In this document: positions 6,649 through 55,136 of the stretch, piece by piece
Numbering within the stretch: position 1 is the first letter of the stretch
Layout of the letters: each line of letters starts with the position of its first letter
Source: a virus
Taxonomy: Duplodnaviria > Heunggongvirae > Uroviricota > Caudoviricetes
Length of the DNA stretch: 64,000 nucleotides
IMG/VR virus record: IMGVR_UViG_3300010998_000001
Coordinates: 27,477 to 91,476 of that record
Reading direction: 5' to 3' (one strand)
The notes under the pieces: model-generated
Database searches by the model: none
What the model was told of the DNA's origin: nothing
What the model saw: only the letters and a program-made list of their open reading frames with translations
Made by a program: the position numbers and the translations under genes

Positions 6649-7992
6649 ATGAATATCTCTGAGCTATCAGATATTCAATCAGAGAGTGCCGTTATCGGAA
6701 CTCTAATTTGCCATCCTGAGTTCATGTCACATACAGAGTATTTAATGCCAAGATATTTTTACAATGTCGAAAACTCTTGTATCTTTTGGGCGATTACCGA
6801 ATTATACAAAGAGGGCATAACAAATATCGACGCATATAATATATCAACAAAGATACAAAGTGACAAAGGTGTAGCAAACACAATTGAGAAATACAATATG
6901 CCGTCTGTGCAGGAGTTCTTAGAATTATACAAGGGGGCGGCAAGACATTCTCTTGGCGAATATAAAATGTTCGCAGAAAATATTGTTTCACTTGCTTTCA
7001 AGCGCGATCTAGCTAATGTGTTAGGGAAACTGCAAAACGATTGTTTTAAAAAGAATATCCAGTTAGATCAACTCAGCAATCATGTGTATGACGAGCTTGA
7101 TAATCTTACACAAAAATATATTGTTTCGGATGAGATACATACGCTAGGCAGCGAACTAGATGACATTTGGGCGGAGATCGTAAACCGCCGCACAGAAGAT
7201 GGTATGTATGGCATCCCATCTAAGTATGTTTCATTTAATGAGTATTTCACATATGAACCGGGAGAACTTGTAGTAATCCAGGCGAAATACAAACAAGGCA
7301 AATCTGTTTTGTTAATGAATGAGGTTGTCCACAAATTAAAGAATGGTGTGGCAACGCTTGTTATTGATAGCGAGATGCCTACAAGATTATATGTAGAGCG
7401 GCTTATTTCTCATTTGACTGGCGTTGAATTAAAGCGTGTAAAGAACGGCCTGTATTCTGATGAAGAGGAAGAAAAAATTAATCAAGCCATCAAATGGCTT
7501 AAAGAACAGCCGTTTATCCATATCTATGATCCGCATATGACAGACGATAAGATGTACTCTATTTGTAAAATGCTACAAAGAAAGATGAATCTATCTTTTG
7601 TTGTGTATGACTATCTCAAAAGTAACGAAACCTCTACCAGTGATAACTACAATGTGCTTGGTGCAAAATGCGATTTTCTCAAAAATAATATCGCTGGCGA
7701 ATTAAATCTTCCCGTTCTCGCAGCTTGTCAGCTCAATAGAAACGGAGAAGTAGCAGACAGTATCAAAATCAATCGTTATCTTAGCGTTGGTATCAAATGG
7801 GAGCATAAGACACAGGCCATGATTGCCAATGATGGATTAAGATGCGGTGACGCTTACGCAAAGATATATGTTAATCGTCTTGGGCGGCAGATGCAAGAAG
7901 ATGATGAAAGTGATTACATTGATTTCATTTTCGATGGCGACACAATGACGATAGTAGAAGCGGAGCAACACGTTCGGCAAGACTCTTTCTAA
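6649..7992 (+). CDS. dnaB: DnaB-like replicative helicase
   Basis: SESAVIGTL N-terminus, Walker A AKYKQGKS, DSEMP, VVYDYLK, CQLNR. Confidence 0.9.
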   Translation: MNISELSDIQSESAVIGTLICHPEFMSHTEYLMPRYFYNVENSCIFWAITELYKEGITNIDAYNISTKIQSDKGVANTIEKYNMPSVQEFLELYKGAARHSLGEYKMFAENIVSLAFKRDLANVLGKLQNDCFKKNIQLDQLSNHVYDELDNLTQKYIVSDEIHTLGSELDDIWAEIVNRRTEDGMYGIPSKYVSFNEYFTYEPGELVVIQAKYKQGKSVLLMNEVVHKLKNGVATLVIDSEMPTRLYVERLISHLTGVELKRVKNGLYSDEEEEKINQAIKWLKEQPFIHIYDPHMTDDKMYSICKMLQRKMNLSFVVYDYLKSNETSTSDNYNVLGAKCDFLKNNIAGELNLPVLAACQLNRNGEVADSIKINRYLSVGIKWEHKTQAMIANDGLRCGDAYAKIYVNRLGRQMQEDDESDYIDFIFDGDTMTIVEAEQHVRQDSF

Positions 7993-8015
7993 AGAAGTGA
8001 TAAGGAGGCTTATCG

Positions 8016-9026
8016 TTGAATTTAATATACGATAATGAAACGTTGCAACAAATCAACGAAAATGTTGACCTCCTTGGCTATGTAGAAAAATCAATAGACT
8101 TAGAAGAAAAGGGAGGCGAGTATTGGGGTCATTGTCCACTCCATGTAGATAACACTCCCTCTTTTTCTCTAAGTCCAGAAAAGAATGCGTACTATTGTTT
8201 TTCGTGTGGATCAGGTGGCGGTATAATCAATTTCCTTGTAGATTATGAGGATATGACATTTGATGATGCTGTTACAAAAGCCTCGCAATTGGCGAATATG
8301 GATTTATCCAAAATGTGCCAATCAAGAACAATCGCATTTCTCAAAAAGCTTCGCGCCATGTCGCAAGTTCAAAAGATTGATTTTCAGCATAAAATATTCA
8401 AGAAAACAGAATTAAAAAAATATTTAAAGGATCACCCACAGGAATGGATTGACGAAGGTATTGATCCAGATGTGATGGATTTGTTTGATATACGAATAGA
8501 CGAATATGGTAACAGGATTGTCTATCCAGTGTATGACATAGACGGAAACCTAATTAATATTAAAGGGCGAACCAGATATGAGAACTTCAAACAAATGGAT
8601 ATTCCTAAATACATAAATTATTATACTGTTGGCGTGGTTGATTACTTTCAAGGATTAAATGTAACATTGCCATATGTCAAAGAACAGAATGAGATAATCA
8701 TATTTGAATCAATCAAATCTGTAATGAAAGCATATGGTTGGGGATATAGAAATTGTGCATCCGCAGAGAAACATACATTAACCAAAGAGCAGATTGATTT
8801 ATTAATTAAGCTGAGAGTGAATGTCGTATTTGCTTATGACTCTGATGTAAGTTATCGGGAAGGCGAAGTTAAAGAGAATATAGATAAATTAAAACGAGTT
8901 ACCAATGTCTATATTATCGAAGATAGAGAACATCTACTCGGCGGCAAAGAAACTAAAAACGCGCCCGCAGATTGCGGCGAAGAGATATGGGAAGAGTTGT
9001 ACGAAAGCAGGAAGAAAGTGGTGTGA
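8016..9026 (+). CDS. DnaG-like primase (CHC2 zinc finger + TOPRIM)
   Basis: CPLH...CFSC zinc finger, IFES and AYDSD TOPRIM motifs. TTG start with AAGGAGG SD. Confidence 0.9.
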   Translation: MNLIYDNETLQQINENVDLLGYVEKSIDLEEKGGEYWGHCPLHVDNTPSFSLSPEKNAYYCFSCGSGGGIINFLVDYEDMTFDDAVTKASQLANMDLSKMCQSRTIAFLKKLRAMSQVQKIDFQHKIFKKTELKKYLKDHPQEWIDEGIDPDVMDLFDIRIDEYGNRIVYPVYDIDGNLINIKGRTRYENFKQMDIPKYINYYTVGVVDYFQGLNVTLPYVKEQNEIIIFESIKSVMKAYGWGYRNCASAEKHTLTKEQIDLLIKLRVNVVFAYDSDVSYREGEVKENIDKLKRVTNVYIIEDREHLLGGKETKNAPADCGEEIWEELYESRKKVV

Positions 9027-24801: not shown

Positions 24802-25599
24802 TTATTCTAAGTCTGCATATCTCTTCTTGTCTGTTTCAATTAAAGAAGCCAACATTGTTTGTAAATCGTTGATGTAGCCAGCCCACTCGCGCATTACAGC
24901 TTCGCCATATCCCATTAAATTAAAATAAGCAAGCGTTGGCCTCTCGATTGCATTTAGCCGATCTAGTGCTTTTATAAAATGTTTCCTTCTGGTTTCATAT
25001 TCCGCTTTTGTCTCTGGCGGCTTTTTATTTCCTTCGCAGAGATGATAAAGAATACTATCAGCCATATCCCATAAGGAATATCCACGAGAGTTTTTAATAT
25101 CCTTTTTAGAAGAAATGATTTTCCCATTTAGAAATTTATGAAACTCTCGCGTTTTCTTTAATATAAGGAATTTCTCTGCTGTTTCTATATCAAGAGCCGT
25201 CATTTTCCATTCCTCTTTTCTTTCGATCTTAGCAACTCCACATAATAAAATGATTTCATAATTCGCAAGTTCGCACCACGCGGCGCTAATCCTTAACTCT
25301 GTGTCTTGTATGCTACAAAAGGCATACATATATTTTTGAAGTTGCATAAACGATTCGATTGTCTCAGTAATTTTATTTGCGTTGTCCGCACCTTTGATTC
25401 TTTTATAAGTAAAGTCAAAACTTATAGAAGCAATTTGGTTATAAACATGATTTAGAATTTCAATAATAGGGTAGCCTATTAATTCGTAACGTCTTTTAGA
25501 CATTTGTTTAATCCTGGATGTCGTTTCAGAATATAACTTTTCAAAAGTATGTTCATATTCATAACCTGATAAATTTCGTTCGTTCTTACGAACGCTCAT
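24802..25599 (-). CDS. avd: Avd-like DGR accessory protein, apparently a tandem double domain
   Basis: Positioned between VR and TR. MSVRKNER N-terminus, basic and all-helical, W...IN....ML...DKKRY C-terminus. 265 aa. Confidence 0.8.
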   Translation of the reverse strand: MSVRKNERNLSGYEYEHTFEKLYSETTSRIKQMSKRRYELIGYPIIEILNHVYNQIASISFDFTYKRIKGADNANKITETIESFMQLQKYMYAFCSIQDTELRISAAWCELANYEIILLCGVAKIERKEEWKMTALDIETAEKFLILKKTREFHKFLNGKIISSKKDIKNSRGYSLWDMADSILYHLCEGNKKPPETKAEYETRRKHFIKALDRLNAIERPTLAYFNLMGYGEAVMREWAGYINDLQTMLASLIETDKKRYADLE

Positions 25600-43983: not shown

Positions 43984-46900
43984 CTAAAATCTTATTCTAT
44001 ATTTGTCCATTGAGCTTCGCCCAACTAATTTATTAATGCTCATTGCCTCGATAAGTTTTTCAAACTTCTTATCACTCTGCATCTGCCGTACAAGATCGTT
44101 GTAATCTTGAACATGGTCTATCTCAATATTCAAATTAATATCGCCAATATTAGTTCCAGTATCCGCGCCAGAACCAAGACGTGAAAGAACGCTTGAAGCT
44201 ATATCGGCTGCTTTATCAGAGTAAGAGTAGCTATAATTGCCGCCATTCAACAGTGATAATGGCTGTTTAGCAATCGCCCTTAGAGAATCACGAAGATTAA
44301 CAAAGTTCTTAGTATCTTCCGCGTCAAGAACGGTTTCCGGCCTTCCGGGAGTACCGTCCAACCACGCAAGTCCAGTAAAGTCAACTTCGCCGCCGCGTTT
44401 ATAATTCTTAAACTTCTTGCGCATTTCTTTGTAGCTGTAGCCTTTGGGACTATAGCTAGAAGTATAAGAATATCCTTTATTAACAATGGTCTGAATCCCG
44501 TTTCCAGAGCCAAACACTTCTGTCAGTCTATTGGCGCGGGTTGGGTTTGTACTCCACCCATAGTTACCATTCCAAATAGCCGCCGCAACGTGTTTCTTAA
44601 TGCTGTCTGTTAATGTTGGCGCAGTAAAAGTAGAAGTTGTCTCTTTCTGCTCTTCCTTCTTTGTAGACTCACCATTCTGAGTAGCTGGAACAACAGACTT
44701 ATCAACTTCTGTAGTAGTAGCAGTTGCCGCAATTTTCGCCGTTGCTTCTTCTTCGCTCTTCTTGATTAAGCCATCTGTATATGCTTTGATACCATTGATC
44801 GCAGCATTAGTTGTAGTCATAGTAGAAGTGAAATTATTGCTATACGTCGTAATCGCACCAGTTGTAGCGAGGATTCTTTTTGCGACAGAGTTATCATCTT
44901 CGCCATTCATGGCCTTTTTCAACAATTCAGCATCGGCGCTAGATAATTGCCCCTCTGTAATGAGTTGGTTGATTAGCTTTGTCGCAAGGCTATTGTCGCC
45001 GCCATTAATAGCATTTTTCAATTTCTCAGCATCCGCCGCAGAAAGTTTACCTTCAGATTGAAGTGTATTGATGAGCATATTGGCGAGACTTCCAGAATCG
45101 CCGCCATTAATAGCCGCCTTAATATCTTCCGCTGTAGTTGCGGCCTGTTTCCATAACGTTGACAGTTCGCCGGAAATTGTATATCCGACAGATTTCGCCG
45201 CGTCATTTATGGTTTTGTTAATTGTGTCAGCGTTAAAATTAACATCATCTGTTAATTCGCTTATCAGCAAATCAACATCATCAAGCCGTGTGTTCAGAGT
45301 AGTCTCATACTCCAAGTACAAATCATCTAGGAGCTTCTTTTGATCCTTAATATACTGATCGTATTGAGTTTCCTCTAATTCCTCTTGCGCGTCGATTAAC
45401 TCTTGATTGAGTTTCTGTAGCCGCGAAATATTTTCCTCCGAAGAGTCACCTCCGTAGGCCGTAATCTGCTTCTGAATTGATGCAATATTCGCGGTCTGTT
45501 TCTCGATATTCTTACGATAGTCATTGAGTGACTTCGCCGCATCTAACGAATCCTCATAGGAATCAATCAACTCTTTTAGCGCATCAAGCTGGGCTTTAAT
45601 ACCTTCCTCGACAAGAGCAACCATAGCGTCCTTTTCATCGTTGGCCGCTTTTATAGAGTCTTGTTGCAGTTTGAGTAATTTTTCTCTCTGCGTAATAAGG
45701 TCGGTATTATATGGGTCTTTCGCTATGTCCTCGTTGATCTTCTTGATTTCCTTGGCATACTGGTCGGCTTGGTTCATGTAGATGTTATAATTCATACCAT
45801 GCAGACCAAGATTGGTTAGGCCAGTATCGGTAAAGTTACCCTGTTTATCTACATTATCACCAGTTAATAAACTCATTAGGAAATCACTTTCCTGAGTCAT
45901 TTGTCCAATTCGATCTTGCGTGAAACTAAAGTAAGACCATTCAAGCTCGCGCATAGTCTTAGCATATTTGGCCAGCGAAATATCAGCTTCATCCAAGGCT
46001 TCCTTAACCTTGTTGATATTTATTTGCATCTGGTTAAATGCTTCGCTGCCTTCTTCGATTTCGCCGCTATTAACAGCCTCAGACATGGCGCGAGTTAGCT
46101 CTTTCAGCTCTGCTTCGAGAACTTCTTTATTCTGTTTCTCTGCTTTCTGAAGGGCAGTATAATAGGAAGTAGCCGCCAGTCGGCCACGTTCCTCTAGCAA
46201 ATCAAGACCATTATTGTAGGTTGTTGCCAAATGGCCGATTAAATCAAGCTGTTGCTCAAAATCCGTTTGGGCGCGAGTAAAGTTTTCCTCATAAAGAGAG
46301 GCAAGGGTTTCATGGAGCGTATCAACAGCTTTTGAACATTCTAATGATTTCTCATACCACTCTTGATACTTTTTGATAAGCTCCGCCGTTGCGTCATCGT
46401 AATCGTTGATATCAATAATACCTTCGCGTACTTTTGCCGCCAAATCAGAAGATAATCCAACAGAGTTTGCTTGTTGTAGATACCTCTCTGCGGCGCGAGT
46501 TTGTAGATCAATCTCCTGCGCAACAAGCTCGATCTCGTCATATGTCGCCGCCATCCGGCCTTTGAGTGACAAATATGTACTATCGGCAGTTTCTTTCAAA
46601 TTAGAAATTGCGTCCTCAATACGATTAATCGCAATTTCGATCCAGTCGATAGTTTCTAAATCATCCGAAGAAGATGAACTTGAAGAGCTAGAAGAACTGG
46701 ACGATGAACTACTAGAAGAACTTTTTGAAGAGCTGCTACTTGATGAAGTAGACGACGTTCCACTATACCCCGTAGACTTTCCACCGCTTAAACTATATGT
46801 CGTATAACCAGAGCGGCCAGCGGCAAATGCTGGGATCGCATCACTGAAATCATTGTTCGCTAGTATCTTTCTGGTTTCCGCCGCTGTATAAACAACGTCG

Positions 46901-49410
46901 CCTTTATTCAGGTGCCCAAGAACGGGGCCATTAACGCCCGCCAAATATGCACTACCATTAGATACGACCAACTCTGGCTTGGGAGTTCCAGATGGTGAGT
47001 ATTCGTCGCCAAGTAGGGAAGTACCAGACTTGGCATATTTGGTGCCAGCCGCGTTAGATTGCACATTTCTTGTATTAACAGTTATAGTGACAGTCTTACT
47101 CTGAATACTGGCAATATAACTCCGCAAAGCAAGCACATTCGCCCTGGCTGTTCCAGTATTATCTAGAACAGTTGCTTGAGTATTTTGTGGCAAACCATTA
47201 AGTAGATCATAAATAGCCGTAATTTGCGCATTAGCATCATCTGTATTACCATTGAGTATAGCTTGCCAATCTGTTCCAACCAATTCTTCTAGTTGTGTTT
47301 TGGTAGCATCAATAGCAATCGTGGCGGGGCCGTTATCGGTATCAATAGTGATTTCTATTGTCGTATCACCGGAAGCGCCGCCAACGTCAATACCTTGACT
47401 TAATGTTTCTTTCGCGTTATTATAGGCTTCAATAACAGCTTGTGTAGATTGATCAAGAGCTTCGGCAGAAGCGTCGAATGTTCCCGTTTCAATCGCGGCA
47501 ACATCTAAATCTGTTCCATCAAGAGCCTGTTCCAGCGCCATATTTAGCGCAGCAAGTTTTTCCTCGGTTGTGCCAGCCTCGTTTGCGATATTCTGCATAA
47601 ACGAGATAACATCTTCCGGGGTTTGAAGGTCGATCTCATGGAACTGCGCAGCTCTCATGATAAGGTCATATAATGCGCCTTCGTCAATTTCGAGCCATTC
47701 AGCTAGCTCGGCCAGATTTGCGTTATCAATGTCAAAGGTAAGTTCTCCGTCCGCGTACTCAAACTCATTGAATAGAGCGGCAACCTCCGGGTGGAGATCA
47801 ACCATCTCTTGCAGATCGGTTAAGAAAGCATCCGTGCCAGAGTAATCGTCGCCAGAGAACCATGCGTTCTTAGCTTCAACCCAGCCCCAAAGAGCATCGG
47901 CATTGTGGGACTCGATCATCTCCATTGGAGCGCCCATGGCCTCGGCAATATCCCAAAGGTTAGACTCGCTACCAATTAAGCCACCCTCGAACATCTCAAG
48001 CATCTTGCTCATACCAGAAACACGAGAATCCCAACCAGCGTCGTTATTCTCATTCATAGCATCATTCAACGCCGAGATTGCATCGTTAGAGGCGTTGATC
48101 GCGTCGGATAGTGAGATATACTTATCGGATAGACTTTCTATGTATTCACTTGTTTCCGATGCCGCCTCAGAAGCATTGTGTAAGTATTCGCTGATTTGAT
48201 CTAAATTCCATCCAGAAATATCCTGGTTTTGCATTAGATCAAACAAATCTCTTAATTCATTAACGCTTAAATGACTAAGAAAATCATTCCAATCTCCCCA
48301 ACCAACATCAATATTGTCTGGTTTGAGTTTACGAAGTTGACTTAGAACTTCATCAACATCAATCGCGCCAATAGCAGAATTGATTGTATTAGCCAGATCA
48401 TCAACAGATATTCCGGCTTCATCAGCCGCCGCCGCAAGTTCTGGAAACAGAGTTCTTAACTCGCCGCCACTCATTCCATTCATCGTGTCGGCAAGCTCTT
48501 TAGCATCATCTACCATTTTAGAAATAGAAGAATCAGATATGAACTCGCTTATCTTTCCTTGCGCTCTTGCAAATTCATCATCACCATATAGGATATAATC
48601 ATATAAAGCATCAATCCGTTCAACATCTTCCTGATAATCTTCATATCCGTATATAGATGTATAGAAATCGTCTATTTGTGGCCGATAAGTTGTTACTTCA
48701 TTCTGCCAATAGAGCATAGCCTGATAAGCGTTTTGAGCTGCTGCGCTATTCTTATCAACTATGCCTTCATATTCTGCCGCTGCTTCATTTGCTTTCTTTT
48801 GCGCTCGATAAACATAATCAATAATATCAATGTGTTCATTCGCAGCGCCAGCACCACCAGCTAAAAAATCATACCAATGTTGCTCTCCGCCGTAATTTCC
48901 TGCGGTATTCCAAAGAAAGCCTTGATTATTTACCGCATCATGAGCATCACTAGCAGCTTGCATACCTTGTTTACGAGCATCTTCTTCGCGCAATGCGATT
49001 TCACGCTCAAGCAAAGCATTGGCCGTTTCAAGCTTTGTTAATTCCTGTTGTTCAACTAGGGTTAGAGAACCTTTCGCTTTCAGTTCATCAATGCGATCCT
49101 GAGTAGTTTGAAGTTCTCCATTAAGATTATCAATTTCAGATTTCGTCTTTTCATAGGCTTGACGAGATTCCTCTGCCTTTTGAGTTGCTTCTGAAAACGA
49201 AACAACAATAGAATCTATGACAATCGCCGTAGCCGCTAGTGCCGCAATAGCAATAGCCGCTGGGCCAAGTACAGCAACAAAAGTTTCAGCCGCTGCCGCC
49301 GACATTCCGAACCCATTAACTAGAGCTGCCGCCATTGACGAACCAGCAGTTTGTACCCCTTTCATTACTGTCAATCCAGTACGGAGTGTAGTAACGAAAG
49401 TTTTAATATT
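43984..49410 (-). CDS. tape measure protein, exon 2
   Basis: Long helical/coiled-coil ORF ending in a typical TMP C-terminus (GGEVDFTGLAWLDGT...E.VL). No SD before ATG 49425. In-frame fusion to exon 1 after removal of 49411-50712. Confidence 0.88.
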   Translation of the reverse strand, partial: NIKTFVTTLRTGLTVMKGVQTAGSSMAAALVNGFGMSAAAAETFVAVLGPAAIAIAALAATAIVIDSIVVSFSEATQKAEESRQAYEKTKSEIDNLNGELQTTQDRIDELKAKGSLTLVEQQELTKLETANALLEREIALREEDARKQGMQAASDAHDAVNNQGFLWNTAGNYGGEQHWYDFLAGGAGAANEHIDIIDYVYRAQKKANEAAAEYEGIVDKNSAAAQNAYQAMLYWQNEVTTYRPQIDDFYTSIYGYEDYQEDVERIDALYDYILYGDDEFARAQGKISEFISDSSISKMVDDAKELADTMNGMSGGELRTLFPELAAAADEAGISVDDLANTINSAIGAIDVDEVLSQLRKLKPDNIDVGWGDWNDFLSHLSVNELRDLFDLMQNQDISGWNLDQISEYLHNASEAASETSEYIESLSDKYISLSDAINASNDAISALNDAMNENNDAGWDSRVSGMSKMLEMFEGGLIGSESNLWDIAEAMGAPMEMIESHNADALWGWVEAKNAWFSGDDYSGTDAFLTDLQEMVDLHPEVAALFNEFEYADGELTFDIDNANLAELAEWLEIDEGALYDLIMRAAQFHEIDLQTPEDVISFMQNIANEAGTTEEKLAALNMALEQALDGTDLDVAAIETGTFDASAEALDQSTQAVIEAYNNAKETLSQGIDVGGASGDTTIEITIDTDNGPATIAIDATKTQLEELVGTDWQAILNGNTDDANAQITAIYDLLNGLPQNTQATVLDNTGTARANVLALRSYIASIQSKTVTITVNTRNVQSNAAGTKYAKSGTSLLGDEYSPSGTPKPELVVSNGSAYLAGVNGPVLGHLNKGDVVYTAAETRKILANNDFSDAIPAFAAGRSGYTTYSLSGGKSTGYSGTSSTSSSSSSSKSSSSSSSSSSSSSSSSSSSDDLETIDWIEIAINRIEDAISNLKETADSTYLSLKGRMAATYDEIELVAQEIDLQTRAAERYLQQANSVGLSSDLAAKVREGIIDINDYDDATAELIKKYQEWYEKSLECSKAVDTLHETLASLYEENFTRAQTDFEQQLDLIGHLATTYNNGLDLLEERGRLAATSYYTALQKAEKQNKEVLEAELKELTRAMSEAVNSGEIEEGSEAFNQMQININKVKEALDEADISLAKYAKTMRELEWSYFSFTQDRIGQMTQESDFLMSLLTGDNVDKQGNFTDTGLTNLGLHGMNYNIYMNQADQYAKEIKKINEDIAKDPYNTDLITQREKLLKLQQDSIKAANDEKDAMVALVEEGIKAQLDALKELIDSYEDSLDAAKSLNDYRKNIEKQTANIASIQKQITAYGGDSSEENISRLQKLNQELIDAQEELEETQYDQYIKDQKKLLDDLYLEYETTLNTRLDDVDLLISELTDDVNFNADTINKTINDAAKSVGYTISGELSTLWKQAATTAEDIKAAINGGDSGSLANMLINTLQSEGKLSAADAEKLKNAINGGDNSLATKLINQLITEGQLSSADAELLKKAMNGEDDNSVAKRILATTGAITTYSNNFTSTMTTTNAAINGIKAYTDGLIKKSEEEATAKIAATATTTEVDKSVVPATQNGESTKKEEQKETTSTFTAPTLTDSIKKHVAAAIWNGNYGWSTNPTRANRLTEVFGSGNGIQTIVNKGYSYTSSYSPKGYSYKEMRKKFKNYKRGGEVDFTGLAWLDGTPGRPETVLDAEDTKNFVNLRDSLRAIAKQPLSLLNGGNYSYSYSDKAADIASSVLSRLGSGADTGTNIGDINLNIEIDHVQDYNDLVRQMQSDKKFEKLIEAMSINKLVGRSSMDKYRIRF

Positions 49411-49460
49411 CAAATTGTTTGTCATATGTATTTCTGGTTACATATTAAGGAGGTACATTT

Positions 49461-50051
49461 ATGCAATATTCAATCGCAGATGAAATTAGAAAACTAAAAG
49501 ACCTTGCAGATGAAGGCATAATCACTCAAGAGGAATTTGAAACACAGAAAAAGAAAATTCTTAACAATGATGTTTCAGACACTCAATCTAATCCTGCAAA
49601 CATTCCGGCAATAGAAGAACTCTATAAGGTTGTTTTAAATGAAATTCCAACAAAATCTAAAGAGGCAACCATTAAAATGATCTGCATTACAAATTCAATT
49701 GGTTACAACGAAGCATGGGCCATGGCTACCAATCCGCCAACAGTAATACGAACAGGCATGAATATCACACAGGCCGAAAGTTTGGCGGCAAAGTATGAAC
49801 AGCTAAAATGTAATGTATCTATTGAGCTGGACAATAATGCAATGCAAGTAGAGGCGCGGCGTAAAGCAACCATATCTAAAGATATGGAAAATGAAGATAA
49901 ATTGCGCTGTCCTAAATGCGGCTCTTTTGCAATTACAACTGGCGCACGAGGCGCTAATTTCACGTTTGTTTTGTTCGGCGCTTCAAAGACCGTCAACCGA
50001 TGCGGCAAATGCGGATACACATGGAGTCCGGCAACAGGGAGGAAGGTCTAA
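49461..50051 (+). CDS. intron-borne antisense cargo gene: SHOCT + ribosomal L7/L12-like + zinc ribbon
   Basis: SD AAGGAGG (49447-49453). IADEIRKLKDLADEGIITQEEFETQKKKIL (SHOCT), a central segment resembling the L7/L12 C-terminal fold, and CPKC...CGKC with a hydrophobic loop. Confidence 0.85.
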   Translation: MQYSIADEIRKLKDLADEGIITQEEFETQKKKILNNDVSDTQSNPANIPAIEELYKVVLNEIPTKSKEATIKMICITNSIGYNEAWAMATNPPTVIRTGMNITQAESLAAKYEQLKCNVSIELDNNAMQVEARRKATISKDMENEDKLRCPKCGSFAITTGARGANFTFVLFGASKTVNRCGKCGYTWSPATGRKV

Positions 50052-50167
50052 ATCTTGCGCCGCAATAAAAATTTTAACCACTACATATAGTGTCAATGAA
50101 TTATACCACACGCAATATATAGTATTATTTTGCCGATAAAATTTGTCTTTTAACTAATATAAATACT

Positions 50168-50203
50168 AATACATCTAGTATTATTAACTAGATGTATTTT
50201 TTT
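50168..50203 (+). terminator. intrinsic terminator of the cargo gene
   Basis: Perfect 12-bp stem AATACATCTAGT/ACTAGATGTATT with a T tract on the + strand. Confidence 0.8.
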
Positions 50204-50712
50204 CTCCATCCAGAAAAACAACCAAGGAGAAGTGGCTGATTTATTTTACAAACTCTATGCTACTTCTAACATTGGAATGCCGTGCTGTTGCCAGCGAGCA
50301 TAGAACTATCGCCGCCAAATAAATAAACTCGACAATAGTAATTTCGACTGTATATCACGCTTAATCAAAATAATGTTTGACAAATATAAAATAGTCATGT
50401 ATAGCAAATAATAATGATAGCGAACCCCCTTACAGTCAGTGTGCCTTCCCGTTTTTCGCGCCAAGTAGATACTTGCCCAAGGCGAAACAGTCCCGATCAT
50501 AAGAAGGGGAGAGGGGCTTGGTGGCGGACTACTCATTGTGATAACCTTTAGCATTATGATTTAGCATGGGTCATCCGCTGTTTCTTTCTGCCTTTCGGCG
50601 GCTGTCACGCTCATCCGTTAGGATCACGTTGTAGCACAGCGGCATTAGAGCTTCCCCGCAGTTTGAGGGTTTATGCAAAACAGGCTTGCGCCTGTAAAGG
50701 GCAATTTTGTTT

Positions 50713-52653
50713 ACCAAAGTTTTTGATTAGGGCGACTAATCCGCCAGCTCCGGCCAGAGCCGCAAGAGTTCCACCGGGGCCGAGTTTTTCAGTGATCTTG
50801 TCAACCACTTCGAGGATAGAGGTTAGAGCTTCTACCGCATTTCCTATATCTTCGCGTGGGAACAAATTCTGAATTATTCCAGTTCCAGTCTCTTTGAGAG
50901 CATTTAGTTTATACTCAAGAGACTCCATAATAATAGACATCTCTGCGTCGGCATTGCCAGCAGAGTCCTCCATTTTAGACATGGCTTCTTCTGCCGCGCT
51001 AAAGTTTTGTAGGATCGCCGCACCGATCTGAGCACGAGTTTTACCGAATAGTTTCTCTAAGAGTCCTGCTTGCTGTTTATCGGTGAGATCGTCCCAAATG
51101 TATGAGATGTCGCGCAAAATCTCATAGGTGGATTTGTATGTATCCGCATCCTCCATAATCGAGATTTTACCATTTGTAAGTTCCGAAATGTCAGATTTAA
51201 TATTAACTAGGCTTTCGTCCAGTTGCTCGGTTTCCTCATCCATTCCGCGAATACGCATTGAAATTGTGCGCAAACCGTTACCAACCTTGCTGGCATTCTG
51301 CGTAATCTCAGTACCAGCCGTAATAAGGGCAATCGTTTCTTCTAGCGTATTGTTCGCTGCCGCCATAGCAGATGATGAGTTCATAAGACCTTCGGAAAGG
51401 TCAGCGTTTGAAAGCGCAAAGTTGTTACCAACAATATTAATCTTCGACATGATGCCATCTAGCACTTCGTTAGTCTGCACATCAAATGCTTTCATAACAC
51501 TAACAAGAGTACCAGTTGAATCATCAATGCTCATGCCAGGAGAGATAGATGCAAACTGCGCCGCAAGCTTTGACATTCTAGTAGCATCTTCATAACTACC
51601 ATATCCAAGGCGGCTCCAATCCGCGCTTGTCTGAATAATCTCTTGTGTTGTGCGGCCTAGTTGTTTCGCTATCTCATTAGCATCATAATAATAACTAGAC
51701 AATTCGCTGCCAGTCATTGAAGAAGTTTTCTGAAGGTCAACTAACGCCGTGTCTAATTCAACAACTGTATTGATAGCTTCTTTAACTTCCGACGCAACTT
51801 TGCGGATCGCCATGGCTACGCTTGTGATGCCGATAGTCTGTAAAGCAATATTCTTTAATGAAGTTGCAAAAGTATTGGTAGTTAATCCTGCGGCCTGGGC
51901 CTCGGATTTAATTTTTGCAAACTCATCTCTAACCTGAGTTAATTTACCAGCATCAGTATTATTGTTTAGCTGTTGTTGCAACTGTCTAAGTTGATCGCCA
52001 TACTGTTGTGCAGCTTTAGTATTCTTCTGCATCCAACTTTCTATCTGATTAGAAAGCGTCGCAGATTTAGTAAGAGTCTGTTGCTCTCTGGCGACTTGTC
52101 TTAATGCGTCAGCTCTTTCTTTTTCTGCGCGAGCTGCCGTCTGTGCAGCTTCGCGTTCTAGCCTTGCCTGTGTGCTAATCTGTGTATTAGTGACAGATAG
52201 TATTTGATTAAACCGTTGCGCTGCGGCAACACGGTCTGAATCTGCAATGTTAGCATTATTCACAGTGTCAAATGCTGCCTGTAAGCTACGCATATTAGCC
52301 TGTAAGGAAGAAGATACATTTCCTAACTTATTAAACTCATTCATCGTACTAGTGAGTTTAGCTTGCAAACCACTAATGTTTAAGCTTGAAAATGAGTTTG
52401 TTAGGATTCTATTAATATCATTCCCTGCGGCCTGGGCCTTGGCTGTCAAACCTTTAAAATCAAACGCCTTACTAGTATCAACTTTAAGGCCCATATTATT
52501 AAGAGCGCTTTGAATTGCGCGAGTAAATGCAGCAGTATCGCCAATTTTAACGTTACTTAATTTAATCTCAGTATTGCCTAATTTTTTAATCTGGCTTTCT
52601 ACTTGTGATAAGTTATTAAGTTTGGCCGTTATTTTGGCGGTAAAATCACTCAT
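50713..52653 (-). CDS. tape measure protein, exon 1 (TP901-type TMP domain)
   Basis: ELDTAL.DL.K, S.DWSRLGY, GN..A+S, TQNASKVGNGLRTISMRIRG motifs. Start ATG 52653 with GGAAAGGAGG. The ORF as called runs 13 codons into the intron before a stop at 50671-50673. Confidence 0.9.
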
Positions 52654-52704
52654 AATAATTCCTCCTTTCCTCAAAAATTAGAGTGACATTATTATGAAGA
52701 ATTT

Positions 52705-53754
52705 TTATAAGTTATCTAAACTGTTCTGTTGAACTTGTTTAATTCCTTCAGCGCCAAAATATTTTTCAAATTGCTCTTCGCTTGGAGTATCATCGTAAAG
52801 CTTTACCATGTCGGCAGAATCCCATCCAACTATATCTTGAATTACACTATCTGGAATACCATACTCTTTCAGCCTTGTTGTAAAACGATGTCTCATAGAG
52901 TGCCAGTAAAATGGTTTCTTCAATTTGGCAGAAAACGTTTGCGCCAATGAATCCATCAGAGATACATCAATTTGTTCATCTAACCATTCGCCATTTTTAT
53001 ATTTCGGGAATAGCCAATCGCTCTCAATACCAAGCTTTTCTCTTTCCTTGAGCCACATATCTAAATATGGCTTAAATGGTTTCGCAAGAGTGTAAAGATC
53101 AAGTAACTTACCTTTTGATCCGCGTCCTTTGGTTGTAACTTTCTCTGGTGTTTTGTATAATGCGCCGCTACAAATTAGATTTTCATCATTAAAATAAGAT
53201 ACCTTAAATCTAGGTATCTCTGATTTGCGGCGACCGCCATTCATTGCCAAAGATAGCGCACACGCTTTCATATAATCTTTTCTTTCAATAAGTTGATCTA
53301 GCAACCCTTGAAGGTCATCATCTTGAAAGACGGACTTCTCACGAACTGTTTCATTCGCAGGAGATTCTATCTTTCTAACTATTGGTCTATAACCTTCATA
53401 CTCATCATCTAAGATAGCCTCAATAAAGTTTGATAGGGAACTCATAGTTGCCTTTACCGTTCTTACGCGCTTTGGCGACCAATGCCACTCGTTAATACAA
53501 TGATTCTGGAACTTAGCAATCTCTCTCTTTGTTAGATCAACAAAGAATTTATTTTTATTAAATTCCAGATTCCAACACCAAAACACATGAAGATTAGCTT
53601 TATATTGTTTGATTGTACTTGCAGCCCTATCTATGGATTGCAAATATTCTAAAAAATCATTCTCTAATTCTATGTTTTCAGGATTAACCTGTTTCATCTT
53701 TTCTTCGGATGTGATGTTGTTATAAACAGTTGAACGTCCTTCAACTCTTCCCAT
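52705..53754 (-). CDS. second tyrosine recombinase (XerC/D-like) in the tail module
   Basis: GGRRKSE, HSMRH, VGW....VKLY. No arm-binding N-terminal domain. Confidence 0.88.
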   Translation of the reverse strand: MGRVEGRSTVYNNITSEEKMKQVNPENIELENDFLEYLQSIDRAASTIKQYKANLHVFWCWNLEFNKNKFFVDLTKREIAKFQNHCINEWHWSPKRVRTVKATMSSLSNFIEAILDDEYEGYRPIVRKIESPANETVREKSVFQDDDLQGLLDQLIERKDYMKACALSLAMNGGRRKSEIPRFKVSYFNDENLICSGALYKTPEKVTTKGRGSKGKLLDLYTLAKPFKPYLDMWLKEREKLGIESDWLFPKYKNGEWLDEQIDVSLMDSLAQTFSAKLKKPFYWHSMRHRFTTRLKEYGIPDSVIQDIVGWDSADMVKLYDDTPSEEQFEKYFGAEGIKQVQQNSLDNL

Positions 53755-54629: not shown

Positions 54630-55136
54630 TTATCCTCCATGACTTATTACTTGCGCAACAAAATCATCAACATCATATTTATATCGTGTGCGCAATTTTC
54701 TTTGTTTGATTTCAATTACATGACCGTCTAAGTCTTTTATGTTCAAACTCTTTTTTGTAGTATTTTCTACTAATTCATTAAAATTCTCTATGGGCAAAAA
54801 TATTGTTTTTTCTAATTCCCTAAACTCAATTATAAATCCACATACAGTGCCGCTATATTTGTTCCATTCATTTAATCCAGCTATTTGATGATAATGTATT
54901 TCTCCATCGTCCTCTTTTGTGCGTTCAAATGATATTGATTTCCCTTGCACACTTTTCAACTCTAATGCAAACAAATACTTGCCATTAAACATCAAAAAAT
55001 CAAATGGGCTTTTGCGACTGAATCTTAACGATGAACTACCACCAAATGATTGCGCGGCATCCGGCAAACGATATATAAGAATATTGTTTGGCGTAGAATC
55101 CTTCCACGCTAATTCAAACTTCTTACCTACATTCAT
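54630..55136 (-). CDS. recU: RecU-like Holliday junction resolvase
   Basis: GKKFE, SPFDF...ALELKS....SISF, HYHQI..L, GFIIEFR. Confidence 0.85.
   Translation of the reverse strand: MNVGKKFELAWKDSTPNNILIYRLPDAAQSFGGSSSLRFSRKSPFDFLMFNGKYLFALELKSVQGKSISFERTKEDDGEIHYHQIAGLNEWNKYSGTVCGFIIEFRELEKTIFLPIENFNELVENTTKKSLNIKDLDGHVIEIKQRKLRTRYKYDVDDFVAQVISHGG

Follow-up and report, generated by a model that had tools for sequence, protein, structure and literature searches.

The cargo gene, its protein and the split TMP gene

The analysed stretch of 64,000 nucleotides (the window) comes from a temperate gut phage with a circular genome of 155,476 bp, in which an integrase-like and a repressor-like gene are read by eye, and whose layout we take to be SPbeta-like. 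Its tape measure protein (TMP) gene is split by a group I intron, and the 3′ part of this intron contains an antisense cargo gene (Table 1). The initial annotation had reported this plus-strand reading frame of 196 amino acids with its AAGGAGG ribosome-binding sequence and a 12-bp terminator, and all three are confirmed. It had also named it the sole well-supported plus-strand gene of the right arm, and from 21.8 to 64 kb it is indeed the only plus-strand reading frame of at least 80 amino acids that does not overlie a minus-strand gene.

Table 1. Coordinates of the features at the intron locus (window numbering)
Feature	Position	Strand	Basis or remarks
Group I intron, 1,302 nt, phase 0	49411..50712	-	Terminal G at 49411; P9.0 pairs 50344-50340 with 49416-49412
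Ribozyme core	50340..50715	-	P1, P2, P3, P4, P5abc, P6, P7, P8; compensatory changes and covariation
TMP exon 1	50713..52674	-	PF10145; phrog_4211 positions 335-948
TMP exon 2	43984..49410	-	phrog_4211 positions 976-2599
Variable TMP segment (~50 aa) opening exon 2, with hydrophobic helix (49257-49201)	49201..49410	-	Putative target of the cargo protein
Cargo gene, 196 aa	49461..50051	+	ORF call; AlphaFold2 mean pLDDT 89; family pN<pS
Shine-Dalgarno sequence AAGGAGG of the cargo gene	49447..49453	+	7 nt before the ATG
Weak sigma-A-like promoter candidate, TTGTCA-16-CATATT	49419..49446	+	Near the 3′ splice site
Intrinsic terminator of the cargo gene	50168..50203	+	12-bp stem 50168-50198, T-run to 50203
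SHOCT helical hairpin, aa 7-34	49479..49562	+	PF09851, E 1.2e-9
bL12 C-terminal/ClpS-like domain, aa 51-122	49611..49826	+	AlphaFold2 model and fold search
Linker helix, aa 125-145	49833..49895	+	AlphaFold2 model
CxxC-x27-CxxC zinc ribbon with Gly/aromatic hydrophobic loop, conserved family module	49896..50030	+	Homologue alignment, model

The intron has the core helices P3-P4-P6-P7-P8 with a G-binding G-C pair. P1 (50715-50713/50702-50700) provides the U.G at the 5′ splice site, and P3 and P7 are formed by 50670-50665/50429-50424 and 50437-50431/50352-50346, respectively. The bulge of P7 is U in this intron and A in that of L076, its closest relative, and P6 contains an A.C pair. Compensatory changes between these two introns occur in P1, P2, P3 and P5a, and 34 of 48 pairs covary among 13 related introns, according to RNAalifold and pairwise comparison. 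In the relatives, P10 and exon 2 covary. Since P1 has only 3 bp and two inner pairs, an automated splice-site scorer did not choose the junction, which was assigned from P1, P9.0, P10, the reading frame and the comparison with L076. The intron has no Rfam match at E 1, viral contigs gave no hit to an exact DNA pattern taken from P7, and folding of the 5′ part alone is uninformative (z -0.84).

The TMP frame joined without 50712-49411 comprises 2,462 amino acids, and a single HSP with 48% identity to the intronless TMP of L001 spans the junction. The ATG of exon 2 at 49425 is not preceded by a ribosome-binding site of its own. Judged from the sequence, splicing would restore the TMP. The insertion point of the intron follows a hydrophobic, glycine-rich part of the TMP. 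The first part of exon 2 encodes a hypervariable segment, and a hydrophobic helix comes next.

The cargo protein consists of three assigned folded parts, namely a SHOCT hairpin, a bL12-like domain and a ribbon of 45 amino acids. The SHOCT match passes its gathering threshold (38 bits against 27), its helices span residues 5-17 and 23-38 in the AlphaFold2 model, and it stands in for the N-terminal zinc ribbon of most relatives. The bL12-like domain of the model superposes on 1ctf with a TM score of 0.92 and an rmsd of 1.0, and, by VIA, on 8yeq with a Z score of 12.8 and an rmsd of 1.5 over 71 aligned residues. In Pfam, Ribosomal_L12 matches residues 56-121 at E 3.6e-5, with a score of 24.4 bits that is below the curated cut-off of 25.9. 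Both domains had thus been recognised correctly from the letters alone. The Ribosomal_L12_N dimerisation domain has no Pfam match in the protein, and SHOCT is found there instead. In the window copy, Cys and Trp occupy two positions that in relatives are most often Arg (75) and Lys (86). Despite the bL12 fold, the cargo protein is not a ribosomal protein.

Of the CPKC-X29-CGKC motif proposed initially, both CxxC pairs are present and the spacer is corrected to 27 residues, the length found in 120 of 120 homologues. The hydrophobic stretch within the ribbon (best 19-mer KD 1.03, best 9-mer 1.81) is a short loop, too short for a transmembrane helix. This Gly/aromatic loop of nine residues, modelled with low confidence, is a putative membrane anchor. 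ESM Atlas features for the ribbon gave leads that were all under 0.9. The PDB sequence matches of the ribbon are generic CxxC knuckles and nothing more, and its fold matches to TFIIS/Rpb9, Dof and NrdR do not rise above background (Z 3.4 or less).

No nuclease family or fold is listed for the cargo protein in Pfam, PHROGs, PDB sequence or fold searches, in agreement with the GIY-YIG, HNH, LAGLIDADG and PD-(D/E)xK motifs having been reported as missing. In the fold searches, the AlphaFold model likewise gives the bL12 fold and no listed homing nuclease fold. PADLOC (library dated 2023) returns no family at E 0.01, and neither Ltp nor gp15 is listed in the family or fold searches.

The promoter candidate of the window copy lies where relatives have strong extended -10 promoters. 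It agrees with the consensus at 9 of 12 positions, which is chance level, and scores 9 on the 13-point scale of the family, on which 71 of 83 family genes reach at least 10 near the splice site (shuffled mean 8.6). A perfect extended -10 (TG-G-TATAAT) at 50100-50108 on the minus strand points into the 3′ end of the cargo gene. It could make an antisense RNA, but is probably a chance occurrence or a relic, as it is present in only one of 36 short introns (0.6 expected).

The ribbon family and its exchange with the TMP segment

Homologues share only the last ~45 residues with the cargo protein. Their N-termini are zinc ribbons, helical bundles, bL12-like domains, SHOCT or combinations of these, with the bL12-like domain in a minority (11 of 73 distinct loci). 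At E 0.001, 818 clusters of 50% identity match the cargo protein, a count that includes SHOCT-only matches. The architecture of SHOCT, L12-like domain and ribbon had been described as unusual, which is overstated, as it is common to about ten such clusters. The emphasis on three domains was also misplaced: SHOCT and the L12-like domain are swappable, and what is conserved is the ribbon at the C-terminus and the location next to the 3′ splice site.

A survey of homologues for recurrence inside TMP introns, as the initial annotation had suggested, finds the gene antisense between both TMP exons in 57 of the 63 viral loci that were fetched by the ribbon alone and have enough flank. It adjoins the 3′ splice site in 82 of 91 (both counts include near-copies), and the same antisense position is occupied in 54 of 69 clusters over all collections. 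When loci are fetched from the TMP side, a family member is present in 21 of 21 interrupted loci with exon 2 in view, from four lineages. Intronless-TMP phages of 87, 91 and 96% completeness have no full family match, and the gene is therefore dispensable. The smallest introns (~0.9-1.0 kb) comprise the ribozyme and the family gene alone, while larger ones contain up to ~7 kb of further cargo. The same family is carried by ribozymes of several unrelated types, and its genes are under purifying selection (pN<pS). A literature search found no paper on cargo introns of this kind. The earlier description of the gene as moron-like intron cargo, not a homing nuclease, is backed by sequence, fold and family context.

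The cargo gene lies head-to-head with the hypervariable TMP segment, within ~50 nt. Among 200 full-length family genes, 159 have such an upstream TMP segment and 41 (about 20%) lack it. The block that is exchanged between relatives extends from the cargo N-terminus across the junction into exon 2, of which it takes in the first 150-450 nt. Its identity is mostly 45-65%, against about 90-100% in the flanks, as seen in L082/L208, L045/L047, L006/L009 and L006/L027. The cargo N-terminus correlates with the TMP segment (rho 0.83) and less with exon 1 (rho 0.34), in pairs that are not independent. Positive selection is not seen: the variable blocks have high pS and pN with pN below pS, which identifies them as old alleles moved by recombination. 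Since the intron puts the gene beside the coding sequence of its putative target, recombination moves the two together as one cassette. A tyrosine recombinase is encoded directly upstream of tmp (window 52705-53754, minus strand) and a RecU resolvase at window 54630-55136 (minus strand), and both may have a role in cassette exchange.

In the phage with a 92%-identical cargo protein, the TMP segment is also 92% identical, and the distal TMP is a mosaic of 18-98%. Eleven of the 15 cargo differences to this relative lie in SHOCT and the linker behind it. Among relatives, L12-type cargo occurs with short TMP segments of 37-76 aa (n=11) and type B cargo with long segments of 97-145 aa (n=22), both confounded by lineage. 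From sequence comparison, cargo and variable TMP segment appear to evolve together, as matched partners. Resolution of the exon-1 tree is poor, and the tree does not separate co-evolution from kinship. A counter-example to the pairing is given by L133 and L145 (around 7650), in which the cargo N-termini are alike (pN 0.02) and the TMP segments far apart (pN 0.50). One cargo allele in two TMP backgrounds suggests that the intron or its 3′ part moved between lineages. Much of the co-variation could be attained by linkage of adjacent sequences alone, and for this reason binding was examined with a complex model.

Bacterial genomes keep the cargo/segment pair after loss of the ribozyme and exon 1. 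In L069-L074 (2096-5459), a chromosomal locus between ppdK and a nitroreductase gene contains an intact family gene, P0064 (235 contigs), beside an open relic of TMP exon 2 (853 aa called), and it lacks a ribozyme and further genes of phage origin. The relic has only 2 SNPs, too few to judge selection. In L198, L199, L201 and L209, one and the same TMP truncation is combined with three different cargo/segment alleles, which shows that alleles were exchanged after capture by a bacterial element. The integrative element with the truncated TMP fragment and differing alleles is seen in L198, L199, L201, L207 and L209 around 6800-8200, and it adjoins an sbcC-like gene in L201, L207 and L209. L062, L078, L184, L187, L080 and L089 contain stacks of orphan cassettes and extra alleles. 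In L184 (1-12021), L187 and L062 (2954-5507) they form tandem repeats of TMP fragment and family gene; these arrays resemble orphan toxin-immunity arrays, and some may be assembly artefacts. The stacked extra alleles and the re-sampling of alleles in bacterial elements would point to a benefit for the host.

Predicted recognition and the proposed exclusion

The complex model covers a single pair, that of the relative L092, whose TMP segment is soluble. The recognition domain of L092 is a zinc ribbon with helices and differs from the bL12-like domain of the window copy. The L092 cargo/TMP-segment complex scores 0.62 against 0.07 for the best control; among solved pairs 58 of 80 reach the mark, and among mismatched pairs 2 of 110 (a rough calibration, as own alignments were used). 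The model runs agree in at least 42% of contacts, the pLDDT of the partner is at least 58, and the predicted interface places the variable cargo N-terminus against the variable TMP segment. Between L092 and L094, the 12 interface positions hold four of the eight cargo changes (p 0.0015), a result independent of the model score. The changes at the interface include the charge-compensating Y27D facing N48K and E30I facing N45D. Substitutions in the TMP are not significantly enriched at the interface (p 0.14 and 0.39). L229 and L236 have 12-16 changed TMP positions, all outside the interface, and their cargo interface is changed at only one residue. The model supports binding, which is probable for the family and its cognate TMP segments. 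For the window copy, the bL12-like domain is the putative TMP-recognition part, through which the copy would bind the adjacent segment, and the evidence from sequence comparison is indirect.

The initial annotation had proposed superinfection exclusion or another anti-phage function. Exclusion is the leading explanation, and the likely target is sharpened to the adjacent variable TMP segment. The cargo protein would be one allele of a polymorphic, membrane-associated and TMP-recognising superinfection-exclusion family that acts at entry, a reading with slightly less than an even chance. In the prophage, a host-type promoter at the intron 3′ end, strong in relatives and weak here, would drive the cargo gene. 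The zinc ribbon would insert its Gly/aromatic loop into the membrane from the cytoplasmic side, and the variable N-terminal part, here bL12-like, would bind the variable segment that opens exon 2, with SHOCT adding avidity. In an incoming phage whose TMP is inserted as a DNA channel, this segment may be exposed to the cytoplasm. The TMP of TP901-1 has a predicted cytoplasmic stretch between hydrophobic regions during injection (PMC5099701). Binding would then block the function of the channel and exclude phages with the same TMP allele. After induction, the late transcript would run antisense through the cargo gene, splicing would restore the TMP, and the excised intron would act as an antisense RNA, so that the phage is proposed not to block itself. 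Points against this reading are the chance-level promoter of the window copy, the low model confidence of the hydrophobic loop, the family genes that lack an upstream TMP segment, the L133/L145 mismatch, the non-significant enrichment in the TMP and the co-variation that linkage produces by itself. The gene, its folds, the intron anatomy, the position, the cassette exchange and the host capture are observed. Expression in the lysogen, membrane anchoring and the block of DNA entry are presumed, as is antisense silencing, which would follow the example of tai, a gene silenced by antisense late transcription (PMC11364771).

The strongest alternative, unlikely as it is, makes the cargo protein a helper or shield of its own phage, which binds the variable segment of its own TMP in lytic growth and keeps it from the membrane, chaperones it or hides it from host sensors. 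Predicted binding to the own allele, the tight co-inheritance of cargo and segment, and the existence of host defences against TMPs (SNIPE, PMC13190303) would all fit such a role. It is opposed by the antisense orientation, which works against late expression, and by intronless relatives that manage without the gene. Furthermore, extra non-cognate alleles in introns and their re-sampling in bacterial elements would be useless to a helper, and the L133/L145 mismatch is tolerated.

A sensor and pore in one protein, as in Rip1, is also quite unlikely. Here, TMP binding would oligomerise the ribbon loop, depolarise the membrane and abort the infection. A variable sensor joined to a constant hydrophobic module, the potential of SHOCT to oligomerise, and the location of a prophage gene among morphogenesis genes (as for Rip1, PMC13434031) speak in its favour. 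Nevertheless, the loop is too short to cross a bilayer as a helix, and recognition of the own TMP would demand complete silencing in lytic growth. Homology to Rip1 is rejected, as the structural match (Z 2.1, rmsd 3.4, 44 aligned, rank 50) is background.

Rather improbable is an ordinary moron with a target unrelated to the TMP, for instance a bL12 mimic on translation GTPases or a ClpS-like adaptor, with TMP co-variation due to linkage only. The fold is a true bL12 fold, some relatives retain the basic helix residues of bL12, and bL12 domains are known from phages and can become part of ribosomes (PMC6375957). However, only a minority of family loci have the domain, the window copy has Cys and Trp in place of the usual Arg and Lys, and the N-terminal dimerisation domain of bL12 is not detected. 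The fixed position and the interface-centred substitutions would be left unexplained. A maturase or mobility factor of the intron that replaces a homing endonuclease is highly improbable: the gene is a near-obligate companion of these introns, alone with the ribozyme in the smallest, and its basic zinc ribbon has a TFIIS-like shape, but the searches list no nuclease, ribozymes of unrelated types carry the same family, the gene persists in bacteria after ribozyme and exon 1 are lost, and its expression is antisense.

Proposed exclusion by TMP allele can be extended, more tentatively, to the large temperate phages of gut Clostridia. These may possess a polymorphic self-recognition locus inside an essential gene, in which the intron sets a membrane-anchored receptor head-to-head with a hypervariable TMP ligand and both recombine as one allele. 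Lysogens, multi-allele introns and capturing bacteria would keep out phages according to their TMP allele, with the spliced intron as the off-switch.

Comparison with known systems

Ltp of the Streptococcus thermophilus phage TP-J34 is a superinfection-exclusion lipoprotein that targets the TMP (PMC3952083). Like the proposed cargo function, it is prophage-encoded and membrane-associated and has the TMP of the incoming phage as target, and allele differences change its activity (PMC3952083). In contrast, Ltp is a lipoprotein that faces the outside and has repeat domains, and its gene lies away from tmp, whereas the cargo family has no signal peptide match, is presumably cytoplasmic, lies inside tmp and is exchanged with the target segment. 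Exclusion by HK97 gp15 depends on a tail region (PMC3594210), and its gene has its own promoter and terminator in the tail operon by the TMP gene (PMC3594210). Its tail-dependent block of DNA entry, which includes the own phage, is comparable to the proposed action of the cargo protein. However, gp15 is a YebO-like integral membrane protein encoded between genes, while the cargo protein is a zinc-ribbon protein with swappable sensor domains, encoded antisense inside an intron. By analogy, it would work like Ltp and gp15.

Tai/anti-Tai, a system of noncontiguous operons, is similar in having a defence gene antisense in a late operon, switched off by late transcription, that acts on tail components. 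It differs in blocking tail assembly via the central fibre and in needing a separate anti-Tai, and no sequence or PADLOC match is seen for the cargo protein. Rip1 (review PMC13434031) and SNIPE (PMC13190303) likewise act at the membrane as single proteins that recognise structural proteins of phages, and SNIPE probably binds TMPs (PMC13190303). The cargo protein has no detectable homology to them and no nuclease domain listed in its searches, and its predicted target is the own TMP allele. Phage bL12 domains (PMC6375957) have the same C-terminal fold and are also optional domains of larger phage proteins. The domain of the cargo protein differs in being fused to SHOCT and ribbon, in swapping with unrelated domains and in two changed positions that are usually basic.

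The new element is the proposed cognate pairing of intron cargo with the adjacent TMP segment. If it is true, a very common and unannotated zinc-ribbon family gains a function, and the persistence of a non-nuclease intron in an essential tail gene is explained. The pairing would also mark the part of the TMP that is exposed to the cytoplasm during DNA injection in Gram-positive hosts, for which a structure is lacking, and natural cognate pairs would predict which gut lysogens resist which phages. The many such pairs make allele-specific exclusion directly testable.

In-frame group I introns in tmp are known as TMP-IVS1/2/3 from prophages of the Bacillus cereus group (PMC2504315). These carry GIY-YIG or HNH endonuclease genes or none, in contrast to the antisense non-nuclease gene of the family introns. 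Further introns are found upstream in the same TMP gene in L031-L033 (3800-4980), L030, L048 and L080 (12433-13638), and some of them hold endonuclease-like ORFs. In the phage carrying P0001, exon 1 is split again (196 + 541 aa). Large introns have a recurrent sense-strand pair of a ~100-aa protein followed by an aspartic-protease-like protein with a DTG motif (L009 6363-7228, L045 6366-6863, L089 13260-14036). In genome G000, an ORF at 144895-145941, outside the window, resembles a reverse transcriptase by eye. This ORF and an unexplained 265-aa ORF at window 24802-25599 (minus strand), behind a tail protein of 2,792 aa, are possible parts of a diversity-generating retroelement.
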